Positions 29,986 to 38,814 of a stretch of DNA of 39,213 nt are shown piece by piece. The DNA lies in contig NZ_JBMFOX010000011.1 of NCBI RefSeq assembly GCF_049969415.1, positions 1-39,213 on the forward strand, written 5' to 3'. Source of the stretch: Candidatus Hadarchaeum sp. (GTDB lineage Archaea; Hadarchaeota; Hadarchaeia; Hadarchaeales; Hadarchaeaceae). A program made the translations under genes and the position numbers. Each line of letters begins with the position of its first letter. Positions within the stretch are counted from its first letter, which is position 1. The notes under the pieces were generated by a model that did not search any database, had not been told where the DNA came from, and was given only the letters and a program-made list of their open reading frames with translations.

Positions 29986-30004
29986 GCTAAAATTCAAAAT
30001 TGTT

Positions 30005-31990
30005 TTAGATTATGATATGGTTGATTTCGCTGATATCGGATAGACTATTCATCTTCACCTGCCCTTCGGATACCGTGTACAAGACGTCGTTTATGTAAAA
30101 TGATCTCACGACGAAACTTGTGGGGTCCATGGTTGAATCGGTGTGGGTGTGATCTGCGTGGGAAATTCTACCCTTTAAACTCAGCCCTTGTATCGAAATA
30201 TCAAAAACATAAGCCCCCTGCCAGTCCCACATTTCACCTTCCACCAGTGTGATGGGGATTACGAGCAAATTCTTCGACCGGCTGAATAGAAAGGCCCTGT
30301 GGTCACTAAGTGCGTATGAGTCAGTTCCCCTCTCACCGATAACGTACTTGGAGATCTGTTTGGGATTTTCAGGGTCGCCAACGTCAAAGATGGCCAGCTT
30401 GACACCTTGGTAAAGGGCGAAGTCGGCTTCTGGAGAATTGGTGGTCTCTTTCCCCAGACCGATTATATGTGATTCATCGTATGGGTGCAGATAATCGGAG
30501 TAGCCGGGGATCTTGAGTTCCCCCAATACCTTTGGATTAATCGGGTCGGAGAGGTCTATGACAAAAAGCGGATCCACCTTCACGAAGGTCACCAGGTAAG
30601 CGCGGTTGCCCATGAATCTAGCTGAGTAAATTCTCTCACCTAATGCCAATCCCTCAATCTTTCCCGCGATTGCAAGATCTTCGTCCAGAACATAGATATT
30701 ATTCTTAGAGTCGCCGCTCCAAACGTCTCCGGTTGTGGTGGCTATTCTGAAGTAACCGTTGTATTCGTCCATGGAGAATTGATTCAGAACCTGGCCCGGG
30801 ACTTCTCCGCCCGCCCTGTACTCGACCTTTCCATTTGATATGGATATTTTATGGATCGTTGTGTTTACCAGCCATTCTTCTTTTTCTTGCGCGCCGACCG
30901 TCTGCCCTCTGGTGTAAGTTATGTAGATGTTGTTAAGTGAAACGTACATTGAATTGGCCTGTGTCGTTAGAAAAACTTTTTCCTCGACAAGTTCAGCTTT
31001 TTGGACATCTATCGCCGCAATGGTCGCGAAAACGTAGGGATAGTAAATGTTGTCAAAATAATAGATTTCAGTTGCCGGTACCGTTTTAACCTGGCCATTT
31101 ACTGAAATTCGGGGAAGCACGATGTTTTCGTTTTCGAAGTAGAGACCCATATTGGTAATTATGTATACGTAATCATCGATCATTCTAGAGCTAAAGTAAC
31201 CACCGCTGAGTTCGATTCTTTTAATCAGCTTTGGATTTTCTCTGTCGTCGATATCGTAGATCTCCACCCTTGTCGTCTCTGGATATCTAAGGTAAATTGG
31301 GCTGGTTTTTGTGAGTGGTAAATAGTTGTTGCCCCACAGTGCTTCAAAGACAATTAACCTGTCGCCGTTGATGAATATCTCAAGAGGGGTGCCTTCCACC
31401 TTGATTTCCGAAAGCAACCTGGCGTTTTCGGCCGGGTAAGCTAGCAGGATGACCACCCTTCCCTTGGATAAGAGGTACAAATAGGTCCCGTCGGTTTTTA
31501 TGATATCTGCTTCATCAACTCCTTTGACTTGGACATTTGTGGTTGAATAATCTTTGGAGATGTTTACCGGGCTGTCGCCAATGTTTACGTTGAAGTTCGA
31601 TCCCTCCGCAGCTTTACCAGTGGCGAATAAAGGCGGAAGAATCGTAAAAATTCTCACTACATCACCGTTCCAGTTTTGAGAGCCGACAAAACTTTCCAGT
31701 TCTTGATACGAAGAGAACGTTTTTAGAACTTTTTGGTTTAAATCAGGTGTTTCAAAGATTATGGGCACTGTTGCACCCAAGACAATCGTTGCGGTTATTG
31801 CTACCGCAAAAATTGTTGGGCGTTTTTTCCTCAGCACCGCTTTGTTTTGTATGGTAAAATAGAAAATAATTAGCGAGGAAAATGTTGTAGCAAAAATGTA
31901 AAGAATTAAATGGTTTGCTCCAGACCATGCGATACCAAAACCAACGATTTTTAATAACACGATTGCCGCTGAAAAAAGGACTTGATTCAT
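30005..31990 (-). CDS. Membrane-anchored beta-propeller protein (Beta_propel/COG4880-like)
   Basis: Three N-terminal hydrophobic segments; YSTTNVQVKGVDEADIIKTDG, LNQFSMDEY.G.FRIATT, ERIYSARF, VDPLFVIDL, GELKIPGYSDYLHP. Confidence 0.88.
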   Translation of the reverse strand: MNQVLFSAAIVLLKIVGFGIAWSGANHLILYIFATTFSSLIIFYFTIQNKAVLRKKRPTIFAVAITATIVLGATVPIIFETPDLNQKVLKTFSSYQELESFVGSQNWNGDVVRIFTILPPLFATGKAAEGSNFNVNIGDSPVNISKDYSTTNVQVKGVDEADIIKTDGTYLYLLSKGRVVILLAYPAENARLLSEIKVEGTPLEIFINGDRLIVFEALWGNNYLPLTKTSPIYLRYPETTRVEIYDIDDRENPKLIKRIELSGGYFSSRMIDDYVYIITNMGLYFENENIVLPRISVNGQVKTVPATEIYYFDNIYYPYVFATIAAIDVQKAELVEEKVFLTTQANSMYVSLNNIYITYTRGQTVGAQEKEEWLVNTTIHKISISNGKVEYRAGGEVPGQVLNQFSMDEYNGYFRIATTTGDVWSGDSKNNIYVLDEDLAIAGKIEGLALGERIYSARFMGNRAYLVTFVKVDPLFVIDLSDPINPKVLGELKIPGYSDYLHPYDESHIIGLGKETTNSPEADFALYQGVKLAIFDVGDPENPKQISKYVIGERGTDSYALSDHRAFLFSRSKNLLVIPITLVEGEMWDWQGAYVFDISIQGLSLKGRISHADHTHTDSTMDPTSFVVRSFYINDVLYTVSEGQVKMNSLSDISEINHIII

Positions 31991-32027
31991 TCCGTTTCAC
32001 CGATTAAGCTTCTCGATTTTCAAAATA

Positions 32028-34373: not shown

Positions 34374-35693
34374 ATGCCGGGTGATATGATGGATTTTGAA
34401 CAGATGGAGAAGGCCAGGCGGGAGTACGTTGAGAAGTTGAAGGGCATTTCGCTCACCGATTTCGACGTGGAGAAATGGGAAAGGATAAGAGAGAGCATCT
34501 ATCCCCCCCGCCGGTTGAACCTGGACGTCATCATAGACGACACGACGCTGAGAGACGGGCTACAGATGGCGGGCCTGGTGAGCCCTCTGCCCGCGGACGC
34601 CGCCCGCATTGCCGAGTTTCTCAGGGACATCGGCGTAGAAAGGCTTGAGGTACTGACTTACACCAAGTCCGACAAGGAGGCAATCAGGATAATGCAGGAC
34701 AAGGGCTTGGGCGACATCATCGCTGCCTGGTGCCGGGCCTCCAAGGAAGACATAGATGCCGCGCTGCAGCTCGATTTCAAACAGATCGGAATTTCCCATC
34801 CGGTGTCGTACATTCACTTTGAGAAATGGTCAGACGTGCCCTTGCAGGGCCTAGTGAAGCGGGTTGCGGATGCGGTTGTTTATGCCAAGGATCACGGTAT
34901 GGACGTCTTCGTGCACGGCGAGGACAGCACTAGGGCTGACTGGAACTTCGAGAGGTATCTTATCAACACCGTGGCCGAGGCCGGCGCCAGCGTCTACCGC
35001 ATTTGCGACACCATCGGCTGCGGTTCTGCGCACCCCGATGACCCGCTGCCGATCGGCATCCCGATGAAGGTCAGGAAGATCAAGGAGGAGACCAAGATTC
35101 CTTACGTTGAGATACACACCCACGATGACCTCGGGACCTCTTTGGAGAACACCATGGCCGCAATCCGAGCCGCCTCCGGTCTTTATGATAAGATCTACGT
35201 GAGCTCCACTTTTCTGGGCATAGGGGAGCGGTCGGGGAACGTCGAAACGGAGAAGGTCATCATGAACTGCTACTTACATCACGGCATGAAAAAGTGGGAC
35301 CTCCGCTACCTCAGGGAGCTCACGATTTTCATGGCTTCCGCGTTGAAGTACAACGTCCCGCTGAACAAGTCCATCGTCGGGGACTTGGCCTTCGCCCATG
35401 AGTCCGGGGTCCACATTCACGGGCTCATGTCCTCGCCGTTGACCTACGAGCTCTTCCCGCCGGAGCTGGTCGGGCAGAAGCGGACCATCGTGATCGGAAA
35501 GAGGTCGGGGAAGCACGGCATCAGGCTGAAGCTGGAACAGCTGACCGGTCAAAAGATTTCCGAGGATGATCCCAGGCTGAACAAATTGGTTGAAATCATC
35601 AAGGACAGGTTTGTCTCCGGACTGAGGAGGTATCCCATAAAGGATACCGAGTTCCGAAACCTGGCGCAGAAAGTTGGATTTGAGATGAAGTAG
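34374..35693 (+). CDS. DRE-TIM metallolyase acyl-CoA condensing enzyme, most like Re-citrate synthase
   Basis: DTTLRDGLQ, HTHDD metal site, GIGERSGN, HESGVH; no LeuA regulatory domain; Re-CS-like segments YTKSDKEA, WCRASKED, HGEDSTRAD, RICDTIGCG...P...LP...P. Confidence 0.75.
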   Translation: MPGDMMDFEQMEKARREYVEKLKGISLTDFDVEKWERIRESIYPPRRLNLDVIIDDTTLRDGLQMAGLVSPLPADAARIAEFLRDIGVERLEVLTYTKSDKEAIRIMQDKGLGDIIAAWCRASKEDIDAALQLDFKQIGISHPVSYIHFEKWSDVPLQGLVKRVADAVVYAKDHGMDVFVHGEDSTRADWNFERYLINTVAEAGASVYRICDTIGCGSAHPDDPLPIGIPMKVRKIKEETKIPYVEIHTHDDLGTSLENTMAAIRAASGLYDKIYVSSTFLGIGERSGNVETEKVIMNCYLHHGMKKWDLRYLRELTIFMASALKYNVPLNKSIVGDLAFAHESGVHIHGLMSSPLTYELFPPELVGQKRTIVIGKRSGKHGIRLKLEQLTGQKISEDDPRLNKLVEIIKDRFVSGLRRYPIKDTEFRNLAQKVGFEMK

Positions 35694-35719
35694 AATGCTG
35701 AAGGCAATCGGGTGATCCG

Positions 35720-36979
35720 GTGGGTAAAACGATAACGGAGAAGATACTGGGCAGGGCATCGGGAGCGGACGTGACCCCGGGCGACTTGATCGTTGCCCCG
35801 ATAGACGCCTGCATGGCGCACGATGGCACCGCCCCGCTGGCCATCAGGGCCTTCCGCGAGATGGGGGCCAAGAGGGTCTGGGACCCGAATCGGATCGCGT
35901 TGGTTATCGACCACATCGCTCCCAGCTCCTCGGAAGGAACGTCGGAGCTCCACATCATGATGAGGCAGTTCGCCGCCGAGCACGGCATCAGGCTGTTTGA
36001 CGTGGGGGAGGGCATCTGTCATCAGATCATGCCGGAGAAGGGCTACGTTCTGCCCGGCCGCGTGATCGTTGGCGCCGACTCGCATACCTGCACCTACGGC
36101 GCCTTTGGAGCCTTTTCCACCGGCATCGGCTCCACGGAGCTGGCGGCGGTGATGGTTTCGGGGAAGCTTTGGTTCAGGGTGCCGGAGACGATTAAATGTG
36201 TGGTGAACGGCCGGATGCCGGTCGGGGTCACGCCGAAGGATGTGATCCTGCGGATACTGGGGTTGATCGGGGCGGATGGCGCCACCTACAAGGCGATTGA
36301 GTTCACGGGGGAGACCATAGCTCAGATGAGCGTCTCGGGCAGAATGACGCTTTGCAACATGGTGGTCGAGATGGGGGCGAAGAACGGGATAGTCGAGCCC
36401 GACGAAAAGGTGAGGCAATTTCTCCAAGGAAGGACACAGGCTGAGGGCGATTATCTGAGGAGCGACCCGGACGCTGTCTATTGTGATATCATTCAGATTT
36501 CAGCCGAGGAACTTGAGCCCCTGGTCGCCTGCCCGAGTTCCGTGGACAACGTCAGGCCCATCGGCGAGGTGGAGGGCATCAAGGTGAACCAGGTCTTCTT
36601 GGGCAGCTGCACCAACGGTCGGCTGGAAGACCTGCAGGAGGCCGCCAGAATTTTGAGGGGGAGGAGGGTCAAGGAAGGGGTGAGGATGCTGGTGATACCG
36701 GCATCCCGCGAGGTTTATCTTGAGGCCATGAAGACGGGCCTGCTGCAGATCCTGGCCGAGGCCGGCTGCTCCATCTACGGTCCGGGGTGCGGGCCCTGTC
36801 CCGGCGGCCACCTGGGCGTTTTGGGGCGGGGTGAGGTCTGTGCTTCAACGTCAAATCGCAACTTCGTGGGAAGGATGGGCAGCAAGGAGGCACAGATCTA
36901 TCTGGTCTCCCCGCTGACGGCGGCGGCCTCGGCGGTAACCGGGGAGTTAACGGATCCCAGAAGGTTCCTGGAGGGGTAG
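35720..36979 (+). CDS. Aconitase-superfamily large subunit (LeuC/HacA/AksD type)
   Basis: TITEKI, HDGT, DH, GICHQ, GADSHT, GSCTNGR, CGPC, STSNRNF.GRMG; GTG start after GGTG. Confidence 0.92.
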   Translation: MGKTITEKILGRASGADVTPGDLIVAPIDACMAHDGTAPLAIRAFREMGAKRVWDPNRIALVIDHIAPSSSEGTSELHIMMRQFAAEHGIRLFDVGEGICHQIMPEKGYVLPGRVIVGADSHTCTYGAFGAFSTGIGSTELAAVMVSGKLWFRVPETIKCVVNGRMPVGVTPKDVILRILGLIGADGATYKAIEFTGETIAQMSVSGRMTLCNMVVEMGAKNGIVEPDEKVRQFLQGRTQAEGDYLRSDPDAVYCDIIQISAEELEPLVACPSSVDNVRPIGEVEGIKVNQVFLGSCTNGRLEDLQEAARILRGRRVKEGVRMLVIPASREVYLEAMKTGLLQILAEAGCSIYGPGCGPCPGGHLGVLGRGEVCASTSNRNFVGRMGSKEAQIYLVSPLTAAASAVTGELTDPRRFLEG

Positions 36980-36981
36980 CC

Positions 36982-37500
36982 TTGACGATAAAGGGACAGG
37001 TCTGGAAGTTCGGCGACTCCGTCAGCACAGACGCCATCATCTCCGGCAAATACAAGTTCAAGACGATAGATCTGGATGAGCTGGCACAGCACGCGATGGA
37101 GACGCTGGCGCCGGATTTTGCCCGGCAGGTGAAGAGGGGTGACATCATCGTGGCCGGGGAAAATTTTGGCTGCGGCTCCAGTCGGGAACAGGCCCCGCTG
37201 GTGCTGAGGCAGCTGGGGGTCGGTGCGATCGTGGCCAAATCTTTTGCGCGGATATTCTATCGGAACAGCTTCAACGTCGGTCTCCCCGTCCTCGAATGCC
37301 ACGAGCTTCCCGACCGGACCAGGCAGGGGGACCTGCTGGAGATAGATCTGAGGAGGGGGTCGCTGGTGAACCTCACTACCGGCGAGATCTTCCGGGCCAA
37401 GCCGGTGCCGGAATTTCTTCTCCAGATGCTTGAGGACGGCGGCTTGGTGGAGCAATACAAGAAGTACGGTGTGTTCAAGTGGAGCATGTCGTCACGCTGA
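36982..37500 (+). CDS. Aconitase-superfamily small (swivel) subunit (LeuD/HacB/AksE type)
   Basis: [37 protein letters not shown]. Confidence 0.92.
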
Positions 37501-38564
37501 TCTACGGCGATGGGGTTGGTCCGGAGGTCATCACTGCCGCGAGGCGGTGCATCGAGGCCACCGGTGTGAGGATAAAATGGGAGGTCGTCGAGGCCGGGGC
37601 CGACGTGATCCCCAAGTACGGCACACCCCTTCCGGAGAAAGTTCTGGAGTCGATAAGGAGAAACGGTGTGGCCCTGAAGGGACCGATAACCACCCCCGTC
37701 GGCACCGGCTTCAGGAGCGTCAACGTGGCGCTGCGGAAGGAGCTCGACCTCTACGCCTGCCTGAGGCCCTGCAAGCTGTATCCCGGCGTGAGGTCCAGGT
37801 ACAGCAGCGTTGACGTTGTTGTGGTCAGGGAGAACACGGAGGATCTCTACGCGGGAATAGAGTACGAGTCGGGGAAGCCGGAGACCGAGGAGTTCATCAA
37901 CTTCGTGAAGGAGAGGAAGAAGGTGGCGATCAGGCCCGGTTCCGGCATCAGCCTGAAGCCGATATCTCCCCAGGCCTCGGAGCGGATCGTCAGGTTTGCC
38001 TTCAACTACGCGCGGCAGAACGGCAGGAAGAAGGTCACGGCGGTGCACAAGGCGAACATCATGAAGTTCTCCGATGGTGTCTTTCTGGAGGCGGCGAGAA
38101 GGGTGGCTGAGGAGTTTCCGGACATCGCGTTTGAGGACAGGATCGTCGATAACATGTGCATGCAGCTGGTGCAGAAGCCGGAGCTCTATGACGTGATCGT
38201 TGCACCCAACCTCTACGGCGATATCGTCTCGGACCTATGTGCCGGGCTTGTGGGGGGCCTCGGCGTGGCCCCGGGCGCGAACATCGGGGACCGCGCGGCG
38301 GTGTTTGAGCCGACCCACGGCAGCGCCCCGAAGTATGCCGGGAAGAACAAGGTGAACCCGACGGCGGCGGTGCTCTCCGGAGTGATGATGCTGCGGCATC
38401 TGGGGGAGCTGGAGGCGGCGCGGAGGCTGGAGGCGGCGGTGGCCCGGGTCATAAAGGAAGGTGAGCGGGTGACCTACGATCTGAAGCCGGAGCCGGACGA
38501 TCCCACTGCGGTGGGGACCATGGAGATGGCCGATGCCATCATAGACGCGATGAAAATCTCATAG
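37479..38564 (+). CDS. icd: Isocitrate dehydrogenase, probably NADP-dependent
   Basis: [28 protein letters not shown] (isocitrate-type Ser/Asn), [34 protein letters not shown] and VTYDL (NADP-type Lys/Tyr/Tyr). Confidence 0.82.
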
Positions 38565-38814
38565 AAAATAGTATTTCGTAAATTTTTGATGAATTGGCAA
38601 AGGTTAAAATTTAACTTTTTTATCATTTTCCCACTTTCCCCCTCAAAAATTACCCATCTGGAAAAGAATAACACCTTTTCCAGCCAATCTGAGCACTTAT
38701 AGAACGGCGAACAACAGGAAATCCTTTAGATAGCTTCTTTTTAGCCAATACTGCCTCGAACCTTCCCCCGTTTGTCCCCGCCGAAAACCCTGAAAAGTGA
38801 ATTAGGGTCATGAA

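Follow-up and report, generated by a model that had tools for sequence, protein, structure and literature searches.

Does a four-gene operon of a subsurface archaeon, whose products would be annotated as enzymes of leucine or homocitrate synthesis, make 2-oxoglutarate, the precursor of glutamate? The operon occupies positions 34374-38564 of the 39,213-nt contig NZ_JBMFOX010000011.1 (hereafter the window, a whole contig) from a Candidatus Hadarchaeum metagenome-assembled genome (MAG) of the Hadarchaeota. It encodes a short synthase of the LeuA/homocitrate synthase (HCS) family, the large and small subunits (LSU and SSU) of a LeuC/LeuD-like hydro-lyase, and a dehydrogenase resembling isocitrate dehydrogenase (IDH). 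A preliminary description of this DNA had proposed that the four proteins run the oxidative branch of the tricarboxylic acid (TCA) cycle. We consider it probable that the operon represents this branch, from oxaloacetate to 2-oxoglutarate, assembled from enzymes of 2-oxoacid chain elongation, a reading that independent computational lines now support.

In the proposed pathway, the synthase would condense acetyl-CoA with oxaloacetate to give citrate, on the Re face by analogy with its family. The LeuC/LeuD-like heterodimer would act as the aconitase and move the hydroxyl group onto the acetyl-derived methylene carbon, as isopropylmalate isomerase (IPMI) does with 2-isopropylmalate. The IDH-like enzyme would then convert isocitrate to 2-oxoglutarate by oxidative decarboxylation, probably with NADP, and glutamate dehydrogenase would take over 2-oxoglutarate. 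We infer every substrate, the stereochemistry and the cofactor from what was observed directly, namely gene order, protein families, motifs, phylogeny, genome content and comparative context.

Organization of the operon

All four open reading frames (ORFs) lie on the forward strand. The first two spacers measure 26 nt and 2 nt and are followed by a 22-nt overlap, and the ORF list bears out the tight coupling described earlier. The first gene (34374..35693, +) encodes the candidate Re-type citrate synthase of 439 aa, a short protein of the LeuA/HCS family with HMGL-like and HCS_D2 domains. The candidate aconitase consists of an LSU of LeuC/HacA type (35720..36979, +; 419 aa; Pfam Aconitase) and an SSU of LeuD/HacB type with the loop GKYKFK (36982..37500, +; 172 aa; Pfam Aconitase_C). 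The last gene (37479..38564, +) encodes an IDH-like beta-decarboxylating dehydrogenase of 361 aa (Pfam Iso_dh). In-frame ATG codons of the synthase gene are found at 34374, 34386 and 34389. Because the alignments of its relatives begin only at residue 5-6 and its Atlas record at residue 6, translation may start at 34386 or 34389, 12-15 nt downstream of the annotated start.

Close homologs of the synthase carry the public names 'isopropylmalate/homocitrate/citramalate synthase', 'homocitrate synthase NifV', 'LeuA family protein' and 'hypothetical protein', the kind of mislabelling that had been anticipated from annotation pipelines. As a consequence of such automatic annotation as leucine or homocitrate genes, metabolic reconstructions of the Hadarchaeota and of anaerobes like them would show no route to 2-oxoglutarate and glutamate.

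The dehydrogenase resembles isocitrate dehydrogenases

We regard the IDH assignment as the firmest of the four. The highest-scoring NCBIfam model for the dehydrogenase was an IDH model (NF006529, 396.6 bits), and IDHs headed the matches to PDB structures (6lky, 372 bits), ahead of Thermus homoisocitrate dehydrogenase (268 bits) and the isopropylmalate dehydrogenases (IPMDHs; 180-228 bits). We aligned it with the classical NADP-IDH of a related genome, which passes TIGR00183 with 632 bits against a cut-off of 567, and both proteins displayed TTP..RSxNVAxR, HKxNIMK and GIxxKPIS. In the window's enzyme these motifs read RSVNVALR, HKANIMK and GISLKPIS, whereas LeuB of the same genome reads EQGILLRLR and DKANVLT, so the isocitrate signature that had been reported in place of that of IPMDH is present. 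We take the Ser and Asn of RSxNVALR to be the isocitrate-binding Ser113 and Asn115 of E. coli IDH. The cofactor loop reads APKYAG, compared with APDIAG in the homolog from a clostridial locus (L044). A Lys-Tyr pair in the cofactor loop of IDHs marks NADP use, and the window's enzyme is probably NADP-linked.

The hydro-lyase pair is a candidate aconitase

In NCBIfam comparisons, the two subunits of the hydro-lyase passed broad LeuC/HacA and LeuD subfamily models only. The LSU scored 612.8 bits with NF001614, well over the cut-off of 385, and stayed under the equivalog cut-offs of HacA_Meth (505.8 against 550) and LEU2 (507 against 611). The SSU scored 210 bits with TIGR02087 (cut-off 109) and contains the GSSRE motif. 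Compared with the LeuCD pair encoded elsewhere in the same genome, the LSU was 58% identical (LeuC on contig C1) and the SSU 47-49%.

The SSU differs from its relatives in the short loop that is held to set substrate specificity in IPMI and homoaconitase (HACN), as described in PMC7308503. This loop reads GKYKFK in the window's SSU, against RYLVQR in the genome's own LeuD, RYLVYT in MjIPMI (3vba) and PYLRTT in MjHACN (2pkp), and thus has two Lys residues where IPMI loops are hydrophobic. GKYKF[KR] was present in 8/8 dedicated small subunits from five genera, with G040 showing the KFR variant. The corresponding loop of pig mitochondrial aconitase, ..GPWLKFRGH.., includes Arg580, which binds a substrate carboxylate. 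The likeness to K-F-[KR] of the dedicated SSUs extends over three residues; it is a hint only and may be due to chance.

What we regard as the strongest single argument for an aconitase role is the placement of such a pair in genus g14 of our survey, which covered 66 Hadarchaeota genomes, the window's own included, with 20 loci fetched. There, LSU orthologs (56-60% identical) belong to pairs flanked by genes for a Si-citrate synthase and an NADP-IDH, and no other aconitase is found in that genus. The full arrangement (type C), consisting of a Si-type citrate synthase, a dedicated LSU, a dedicated SSU and a classical NADP-IDH, was seen in 2/3 g14 loci with a Si-citrate synthase; the third has the pair after the Si-citrate synthase and no IDH. 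The g14 Si-type citrate synthase passes TIGR01800 (488 bits against 421).

The synthase belongs to a separate, mostly archaeal lineage

The synthase had been described as lacking the LeuA regulatory domain, and Pfam indeed returned only HMGL-like and HCS_D2, with no match to LeuA_dimer, a domain that is present in the genome's own LeuA paralog. It scored under every NCBIfam equivalog cut-off for HCS, isopropylmalate synthase (IPMS) and CimA. The top model was nifV (TIGR02660, 261 bits against 462.9), and the other HCS model, TIGR02146, gave 209 bits against 413.55, whereas control rows P0155 and P0150 pass their own HCS models (Lys-type HCS and NifV). Among PDB structures, Sulfolobus HCS 6ktq was the top match.

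The closest homolog, 90% identical, was found in Candidatus Hadarchaeum yellowstonense, and the named proteins among the best 120 matches were mostly of Hadarchaeota type, with three labelled Thaumarchaeota or Nitrososphaeria and one Methanobacteriota. A search of 50%-identity representatives returned the synthase as an isolated family. Beyond the Hadarchaeal cluster the identities were 55% (P0121), 47% (Lokiarchaeota) and 40% (Altiarchaeales), with all others at or below 38%. P0121, the nearest relative outside the Hadarchaeal cluster, is fused to an Lrp-type DNA-binding domain. Through a distant match, P0242, we reached a large clade of bacterial proteins, among them three named 'citrate (Re)-synthase' by the Joint Genome Institute (JGI) as well as homologs from Clostridia, Planctomycetota and Thermodesulfobacteriota; we refer to its members as classical Re-citrate synthase (Re-CS)-like proteins. 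The Atlas gave cluster-level leads only, to Chloroflexota and Planctomycetota. Many of the classical Re-CS-like proteins (about 600 aa; P0283 and others) also contain dCache-type domains (PF02743, PF22673), and such proteins are publicly named 'histone-lysine N-methyltransferase', which looks like a mis-annotation.

All of the sequence segments earlier cited as marks of Re-CS were found in the synthase, namely YTKSDKEA, WCRASKED, HGEDSTRAD and RICDTIGCG followed by a Pro-rich insert, and the same four features occur in the clade with the JGI-named proteins. In a 29-row alignment, a 10-residue insert after CDTxGxG and the His in H-x-E-D-x-T-R-A were confined to the Hadarchaeal rows, P0121-P0123 and the Re-CS-like rows. 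The segment Y[ST]xxD[KR]EA and the loss of the Glu of RDGxQ were likewise seen in these two clades only.

In a 59-row IQ-TREE phylogeny, a branch supported at 100/99 separated the synthase and the Re-CS-like clade from 35 IPMS, NifV and Lys-type HCS rows, the control rows among them. The same split was recovered with 174 rows at a Shimodaira-Hasegawa-like approximate likelihood ratio (SH-aLRT) of 98; its Re-CS-like side comprised the Hadarchaeal clade with its two nearest relatives, and the Re-CS-like clade with the Altiarchaeales protein. Approximately unbiased (AU) tests, for which the groups were named after the unrooted tree had been seen, rejected forcing the Hadarchaeal clade onto Lys-type HCS (-80 log-likelihood units, p-AU 0.0002) and marginally rejected forcing it onto NifV-type rows (-49 log-likelihood units, p-AU 0.033). 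Neither the tree nor these tests showed a grouping with HCS, IPMS or CimA, the result that the preliminary description had named as speaking against its proposal. The synthase is a separate, mostly archaeal lineage beside, and not within, the clostridial Re-CS-like clade.

Genome content outside the operon

Using tblastn, we found as paralogs in the same genome two long LeuA/CimA-type synthases, one of them shown to carry LeuA_dimer, a second short synthase on contig C3, and one more LeuC-LeuD-LeuB set. This set is part of a cluster ilvB-ilvH-ilvC-ilvD-leuC-leuD-leuB, and its LeuB passes the IPMDH cut-off. DapA adjoining LysA, two glutamate dehydrogenases, a GTP-type phosphoenolpyruvate (PEP) carboxykinase, a class I fumarase and a GOGAT fragment at a contig end were also present. 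With a separate ilv-leu operon, DapA and LysA, leucine and lysine are provided for outside the operon.

Whole-genome family searches of the MAG (1.47 Mb, 95.25% complete, 2.09% contamination) detected no Si-citrate synthase, and no ORF of AcnA/B size for an aconitase was found in it. The outcome of the genome check suggested earlier was therefore absence of a gltA-type synthase and of AcnA/B, and presence of separate ilv-leu and diaminopimelate-route genes. The same searches detected neither MCR alpha nor LysW (nitrogenase was not searched for), neither pyruvate carboxylase B nor an archaeal PEP carboxylase, and no succinyl-CoA synthetase beta subunit over cut-off. There is no methanogenic cofactor in this genome that needs 2-oxoadipate, and no other route to 2-oxoglutarate was seen in the genome searches.

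The second short synthase (L002:5658-6962, +; 434 aa) is 27% identical to that of the operon, has an unusual NRDGVQ motif and adjoins a gene of the molybdopterin aldehyde/xanthine-dehydrogenase family. In our trees it groups with short synthases of the P0127 type, and the operon's synthase does not.

Distribution in the Hadarchaeota

Among the 66 genomes, the window-type synthase was found in 46/66 and the window-type dehydrogenase in 50/66. Si-citrate synthase occurred in 7/66, all of them in genus g14 (7/7, against 0/59 elsewhere), and an aconitase ORF of AcnA/B size in 0/66. A fused aconitase-family frame of 636-735 aa was present in 4/5 genomes of genus g19, with fragments only in the fifth (G061). 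Both synthase and dehydrogenase were detected in 42 genomes; by coordinate reading, 34 of these have them within 4 kb of each other on a single contig, as immediate neighbours in 24 genomes and separated by the LSU/SSU pair in 10, and the other 8 have them on different, mostly short contigs. In 3/5 g19 genomes (G063:C1, which is locus L114, G064:C51 and G065:C4), a single open frame of 805-810 aa encompasses synthase and dehydrogenase, which looks like a fusion of the first and third predicted steps. In the sister genome G062 they are encoded by two ORFs with 2 nt between them.

Besides type C, two layouts were distinguished. In type A (g1, g3, g9, g17) the order is synthase, dedicated LSU, dedicated SSU and IDH-like gene, and in type B (g2, g6, g10, g11) it is leuC, leuD, synthase, IDH-like gene and leuB. 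In the type B genomes, this LeuCD pair was the only one found. The LeuD loop in the type B loci L108-L113 reads RYL[IAV][KH]H in 4/6 (the regular expression missed L110 and L111), compared with RYLVQR in the genome with two pairs, and could be the mark of a dual-purpose isomerase.

Genera g8 and g12 have the dehydrogenase and no window-type synthase; C3-type synthases were found in 2/3 genomes of g8 and 2/2 of g12. C3-type synthases were present in 6/66 genomes overall, with the copy of G033 broken by stop codons. Because these distributions alternate across the phylum, the citrate-forming step seems to be filled by three alternative enzymes, of the Si, window and C3 types. Since few evolutionary events among related genomes underlie the alternation, we treat it as consistent with our reading of the operon and not as statistical proof. 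If so, one phylum would have swapped the first enzyme three ways around a conserved IDH, a clean case of enzyme displacement.

Synteny in bacteria and metagenomes

We examined 80 clostridial loci around homologs of the Re-CS-like protein P0347. An aconitase-family gene was found directly downstream of the Re-CS-like gene in 48/80 loci, and 33/80 had a dehydrogenase; both were present, in the gene order of the window, in 27/80. The aconitase of locus L044 is a single chain of 642 aa that passes NF005558 (988 bits against 612), and the dehydrogenases of L044, L061 and L082 were 58-60% identical to that of the window.

A scan of metagenome contigs for the SSU loop pattern yielded at least 119 stretches, of which 80 loci were kept. 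Upstream of the LSU, 42 loci could be assessed: 21 had a short synthase 52-62% identical to P0127, one a window-type and one a C3-type synthase, and 19 had no recognisable gene there. Of the 46 loci that could be assessed downstream of the SSU, 27 had a gene that best matched the window's dehydrogenase, two a classical IDH, one a LeuB-like gene and 16 none. Most of these 27 dehydrogenases were 55-68% identical to the window's and carried RSxNVxLR; four reached only 36-45%. In L194, a C3-type synthase (70% identical) lies directly beside a GKYKFK-type pair. The relatives of P0127 are annotated as 'homocitrate synthases' of Dictyoglomus, the Desulfotomaculum group and other anaerobes; by names and taxa only, P0127 and its relatives fit the description of a second Re-CS clade in PMC12016533.

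Two further loci, L135 and L193, have fragments of classical Re-CS-like synthases (38-43% identical to P0347) directly upstream of the LSU gene. In L193 the LSU is followed by a GKYKFK-type SSU, and L135 shows the loop pattern at the end of its contig. From this layout, the split aconitase candidate also pairs with the classical synthase clade. Hence, the earlier claim of a LeuCD-type two-subunit aconitase in this archaeon gains support from the context of the pair, but the pair is not peculiar to it.

These observations are also compatible with a broader proposition, to which we give even odds. LeuCD-like heterodimers with the GKYKF[KR] loop may form a distinct class of aconitase and be the enzyme that is missing in many anaerobes, archaeal and bacterial, with LeuA-family citrate synthases. 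In the Hadarchaeota, the step would be one more round of chain elongation, in which citrate synthases of the Si, window and C3 types are interchangeable, and where a genome has a single pair, leucine and glutamate synthesis would share that hydro-lyase. The pair is a concrete two-subunit aconitase candidate with a recognisable loop motif, and it could explain reports of a Re-CS with a 'missing aconitate hydratase', such as that on Chloroflexi RBG-1351 in PMC3971608. The swapping of the first enzyme within the phylum also supports the view that the oxidative TCA branch and the elongation routes to leucine and lysine are variations on one module.

Weighing of the evidence

Several observations weigh against a citrate-to-2-oxoglutarate role. 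On the Re-CS side, the synthase is no more than 40% identical to P0123, the closest protein there, and 32% identical to P0242, and it retains HCS_D2 and the AHESGVH motif, both of which are lost in classical Re-CS-like proteins. The clostridial Re-CS kinship claimed earlier therefore holds as far as the shared side of the tree, but not as membership of the clostridial clade. As the tree is unrooted, a root on the classical Re-CS branch would make the Hadarchaeal clade sister to HCS and IPMS. The reference clade is labelled solely by the three automatic JGI names, on which the link to characterised Re-CS rests because C. kluyveri is absent from the 80 clostridial P0347 loci. The synthase further has Phe at a position that is Arg in HCS and in classical Re-CS-like rows. 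We had considered this Phe as evidence against HCS and dropped it, because the classical Re-CS-like rows also keep Arg and the position is not diagnostic between the families. The NCBIfam scores of the hydro-lyase pair are equally near the methanogen homoaconitase and IPMI models, with which the genome's own LeuD scores nearly alike. The dehydrogenase is under all IDH equivalog cut-offs (NF006529, 396.6 bits against 510), and its homolog in clostridial locus L044 is likewise under that of NF006529 (459.6 bits). Citrate could in reality be made by the second short synthase, encoded on contig C3, and G049 of genus g14 combines a window-type synthase at the place of the operon with a Si-citrate synthase encoded at another locus. 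Lastly, genome absences are not proof in a MAG that is 95.25% complete.

These points leave room for other functions. An operon of homocitrate synthase, homoaconitase and homoisocitrate dehydrogenase would carry 2-oxoglutarate to 2-oxoadipate, for aminoadipate lysine synthesis or a cofactor like coenzyme B. Such a module would account for nifV as the top model of the synthase (261 bits), for Sulfolobus HCS 6ktq as its top structure and for its HCS_D2 domain; the LSU fits the hacA_fam subfamily, and the basic residues of the SSU loop would also suit a tricarboxylate such as homoaconitate. The best model of the SSU is HacB2_Meth, with 213 bits against a cut-off of 230, but we dismissed this near-cut-off score as a homoaconitase signal, as the genome's own LeuD reaches 201.7 bits. 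The synthase, however, is far under the HCS cut-offs (261 against 463 and 209 against 414 bits), and a grouping with Lys-type HCS was rejected by the AU test (0.0002) and one with NifV rows marginally so (0.033). It has Phe and Trp where solved HCS chains have the Arg and His that presumably bind the distal carboxylate of 2-oxoglutarate. Neither LysW nor MCR alpha was found in the genome and DapA adjoins LysA, the dehydrogenase has IDH motifs, and in g14 the pair has a Si-citrate synthase on one side and an NADP-IDH on the other. We therefore regard a homocitrate module as very unlikely.

Also unlikely, in our view, is that the enzymes are promiscuous, acting for example on homocitrate or citramalate besides citrate, or that the C3 synthase makes the citrate and the operon's synthase another hydroxy-acid for the same hydro-lyase and dehydrogenase. 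In g2, g6, g10 and g11 a single LeuCD pair is clustered with synthase, IDH-like gene and leuB, and no further pair turned up in these genomes, which would leave this one to work in two pathways. Both short synthase types are present in the genome of the window, the C3 type stands beside a GKYKFK-type pair in L194, and broad specificity has been described for archaeal IPMI and for HACN loop variants (PMC7308503). Yet, throughout the phylum, the window-type synthase and the IDH-like gene show tight linkage, with a fusion of the two in three genomes. The C3 type is rare (6/66), and stop codons interrupt it in G033, the nearest relative; the IDH motifs, for their part, indicate that the side chain of the substrate is carboxymethyl. 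That all four proteins belong to chain-elongation families, and that the type B genes lie inside a leuCD...leuB cluster, would also be compatible with another or a novel elongation that uses no oxaloacetate, such as an extra pathway of leucine/isoleucine type. This we hold to be the least probable of the alternatives and highly improbable in itself: two long LeuA/CimA-type synthases, a LeuCD pair and a LeuB above its cut-off are already encoded in the genome, the SSU loop is not hydrophobic and the LeuB motif is absent from the dehydrogenase. The reading that we prefer remains the oxidative branch from oxaloacetate to 2-oxoglutarate.

Surroundings of the operon

The gene upstream on the same strand encodes an RNA 3'-phosphate cyclase, and an MGMT-like protein and a beta-propeller protein are encoded nearby; none of the neighbours is functionally related to the operon. 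At 30005-31990 on the reverse strand, the window encodes a protein of 661 aa with a hydrophobic stretch at its N-terminus and a Beta_propel domain (PF09826) of full length. The G+C content is 0.44 at positions 30001-32000, compared with 0.57-0.61 in the operon. Just 3' of the last stop codon of the operon, a T-rich stretch (38575..38635, +) may be an archaeal oligo-T terminator, as read from the sequence alone.

Comparison with known systems

Characterised Re-citrate synthases form two distant clades according to PMC12016533, a classical clade with C. kluyveri and Syntrophus, and a second clade with Dehalococcoides, Clostridioides difficile, Thermoanaerobacter and Heliomicrobium (HM1_2993) whose members are usually annotated as homocitrate synthase. 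The preliminary description had placed all characterised Re-CS in anaerobic bacteria, which leaves out the archaeon Ignicoccus, for which Re-CS activity has been reported, as cited in PMC12016533. Our literature search, outside of which several key papers lay, returned no archaeal operon of the present kind and no description of a LeuCD-type aconitase.

The clostridial Re-CS cluster has the same gene order as the operon (synthase, aconitase-family gene, dehydrogenase), and the synthases share the insert, the His motif, Y[ST]xxD[KR]EA and a residue other than Glu in RDGxQ. The dehydrogenases are up to 60% identical, and the cluster would serve the same role in organisms without Si-citrate synthase. 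The window's synthase differs in its identity of at most 40% and in having HCS_D2, AHESGVH and Phe in place of Arg. The aconitase of the window is split and only 35-40% identical to the fused 642-aa clostridial enzyme, as against 58% and 47-49% to the genome's own LeuCD, and the loop of the fused enzyme reads TDHIMP..AK.LP[YF]RSN where the window's SSU has GKYKFK. With the second Re-CS clade, the operon shares a short LeuA-family synthase mislabelled as HCS in an anaerobe without Si-citrate synthase; the window's synthase falls outside that group, whereas the C3 synthase of the same genome groups with P0127, by names and taxa a candidate member of this second clade.

Like LeuCD and HacAB (3vba, 2pkp, 4kp2, 4nqy), the hydro-lyase has two subunits, passes the subfamily models and contains GSSRE. 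Unlike them, it has a loop that is neither RYLV[YQ] nor PYLRT, it stays under the equivalog cut-offs of IPMI as well as of HACN, and the genomic partners of pairs of its type are citrate synthases and IDHs. Single-chain aconitases (5acn and the NF005558 type) belong to the same superfamily and catalyse the reaction proposed here, but the window's enzyme consists of two polypeptides without a linker and has a loop of another length. A cluster of Re-citrate synthase, aconitase and IDH is already known from anaerobic bacteria, and what is new here is the archaeal setting, the distinct synthase lineage and the split, LeuCD-derived aconitase candidate with a loop signature of its own.

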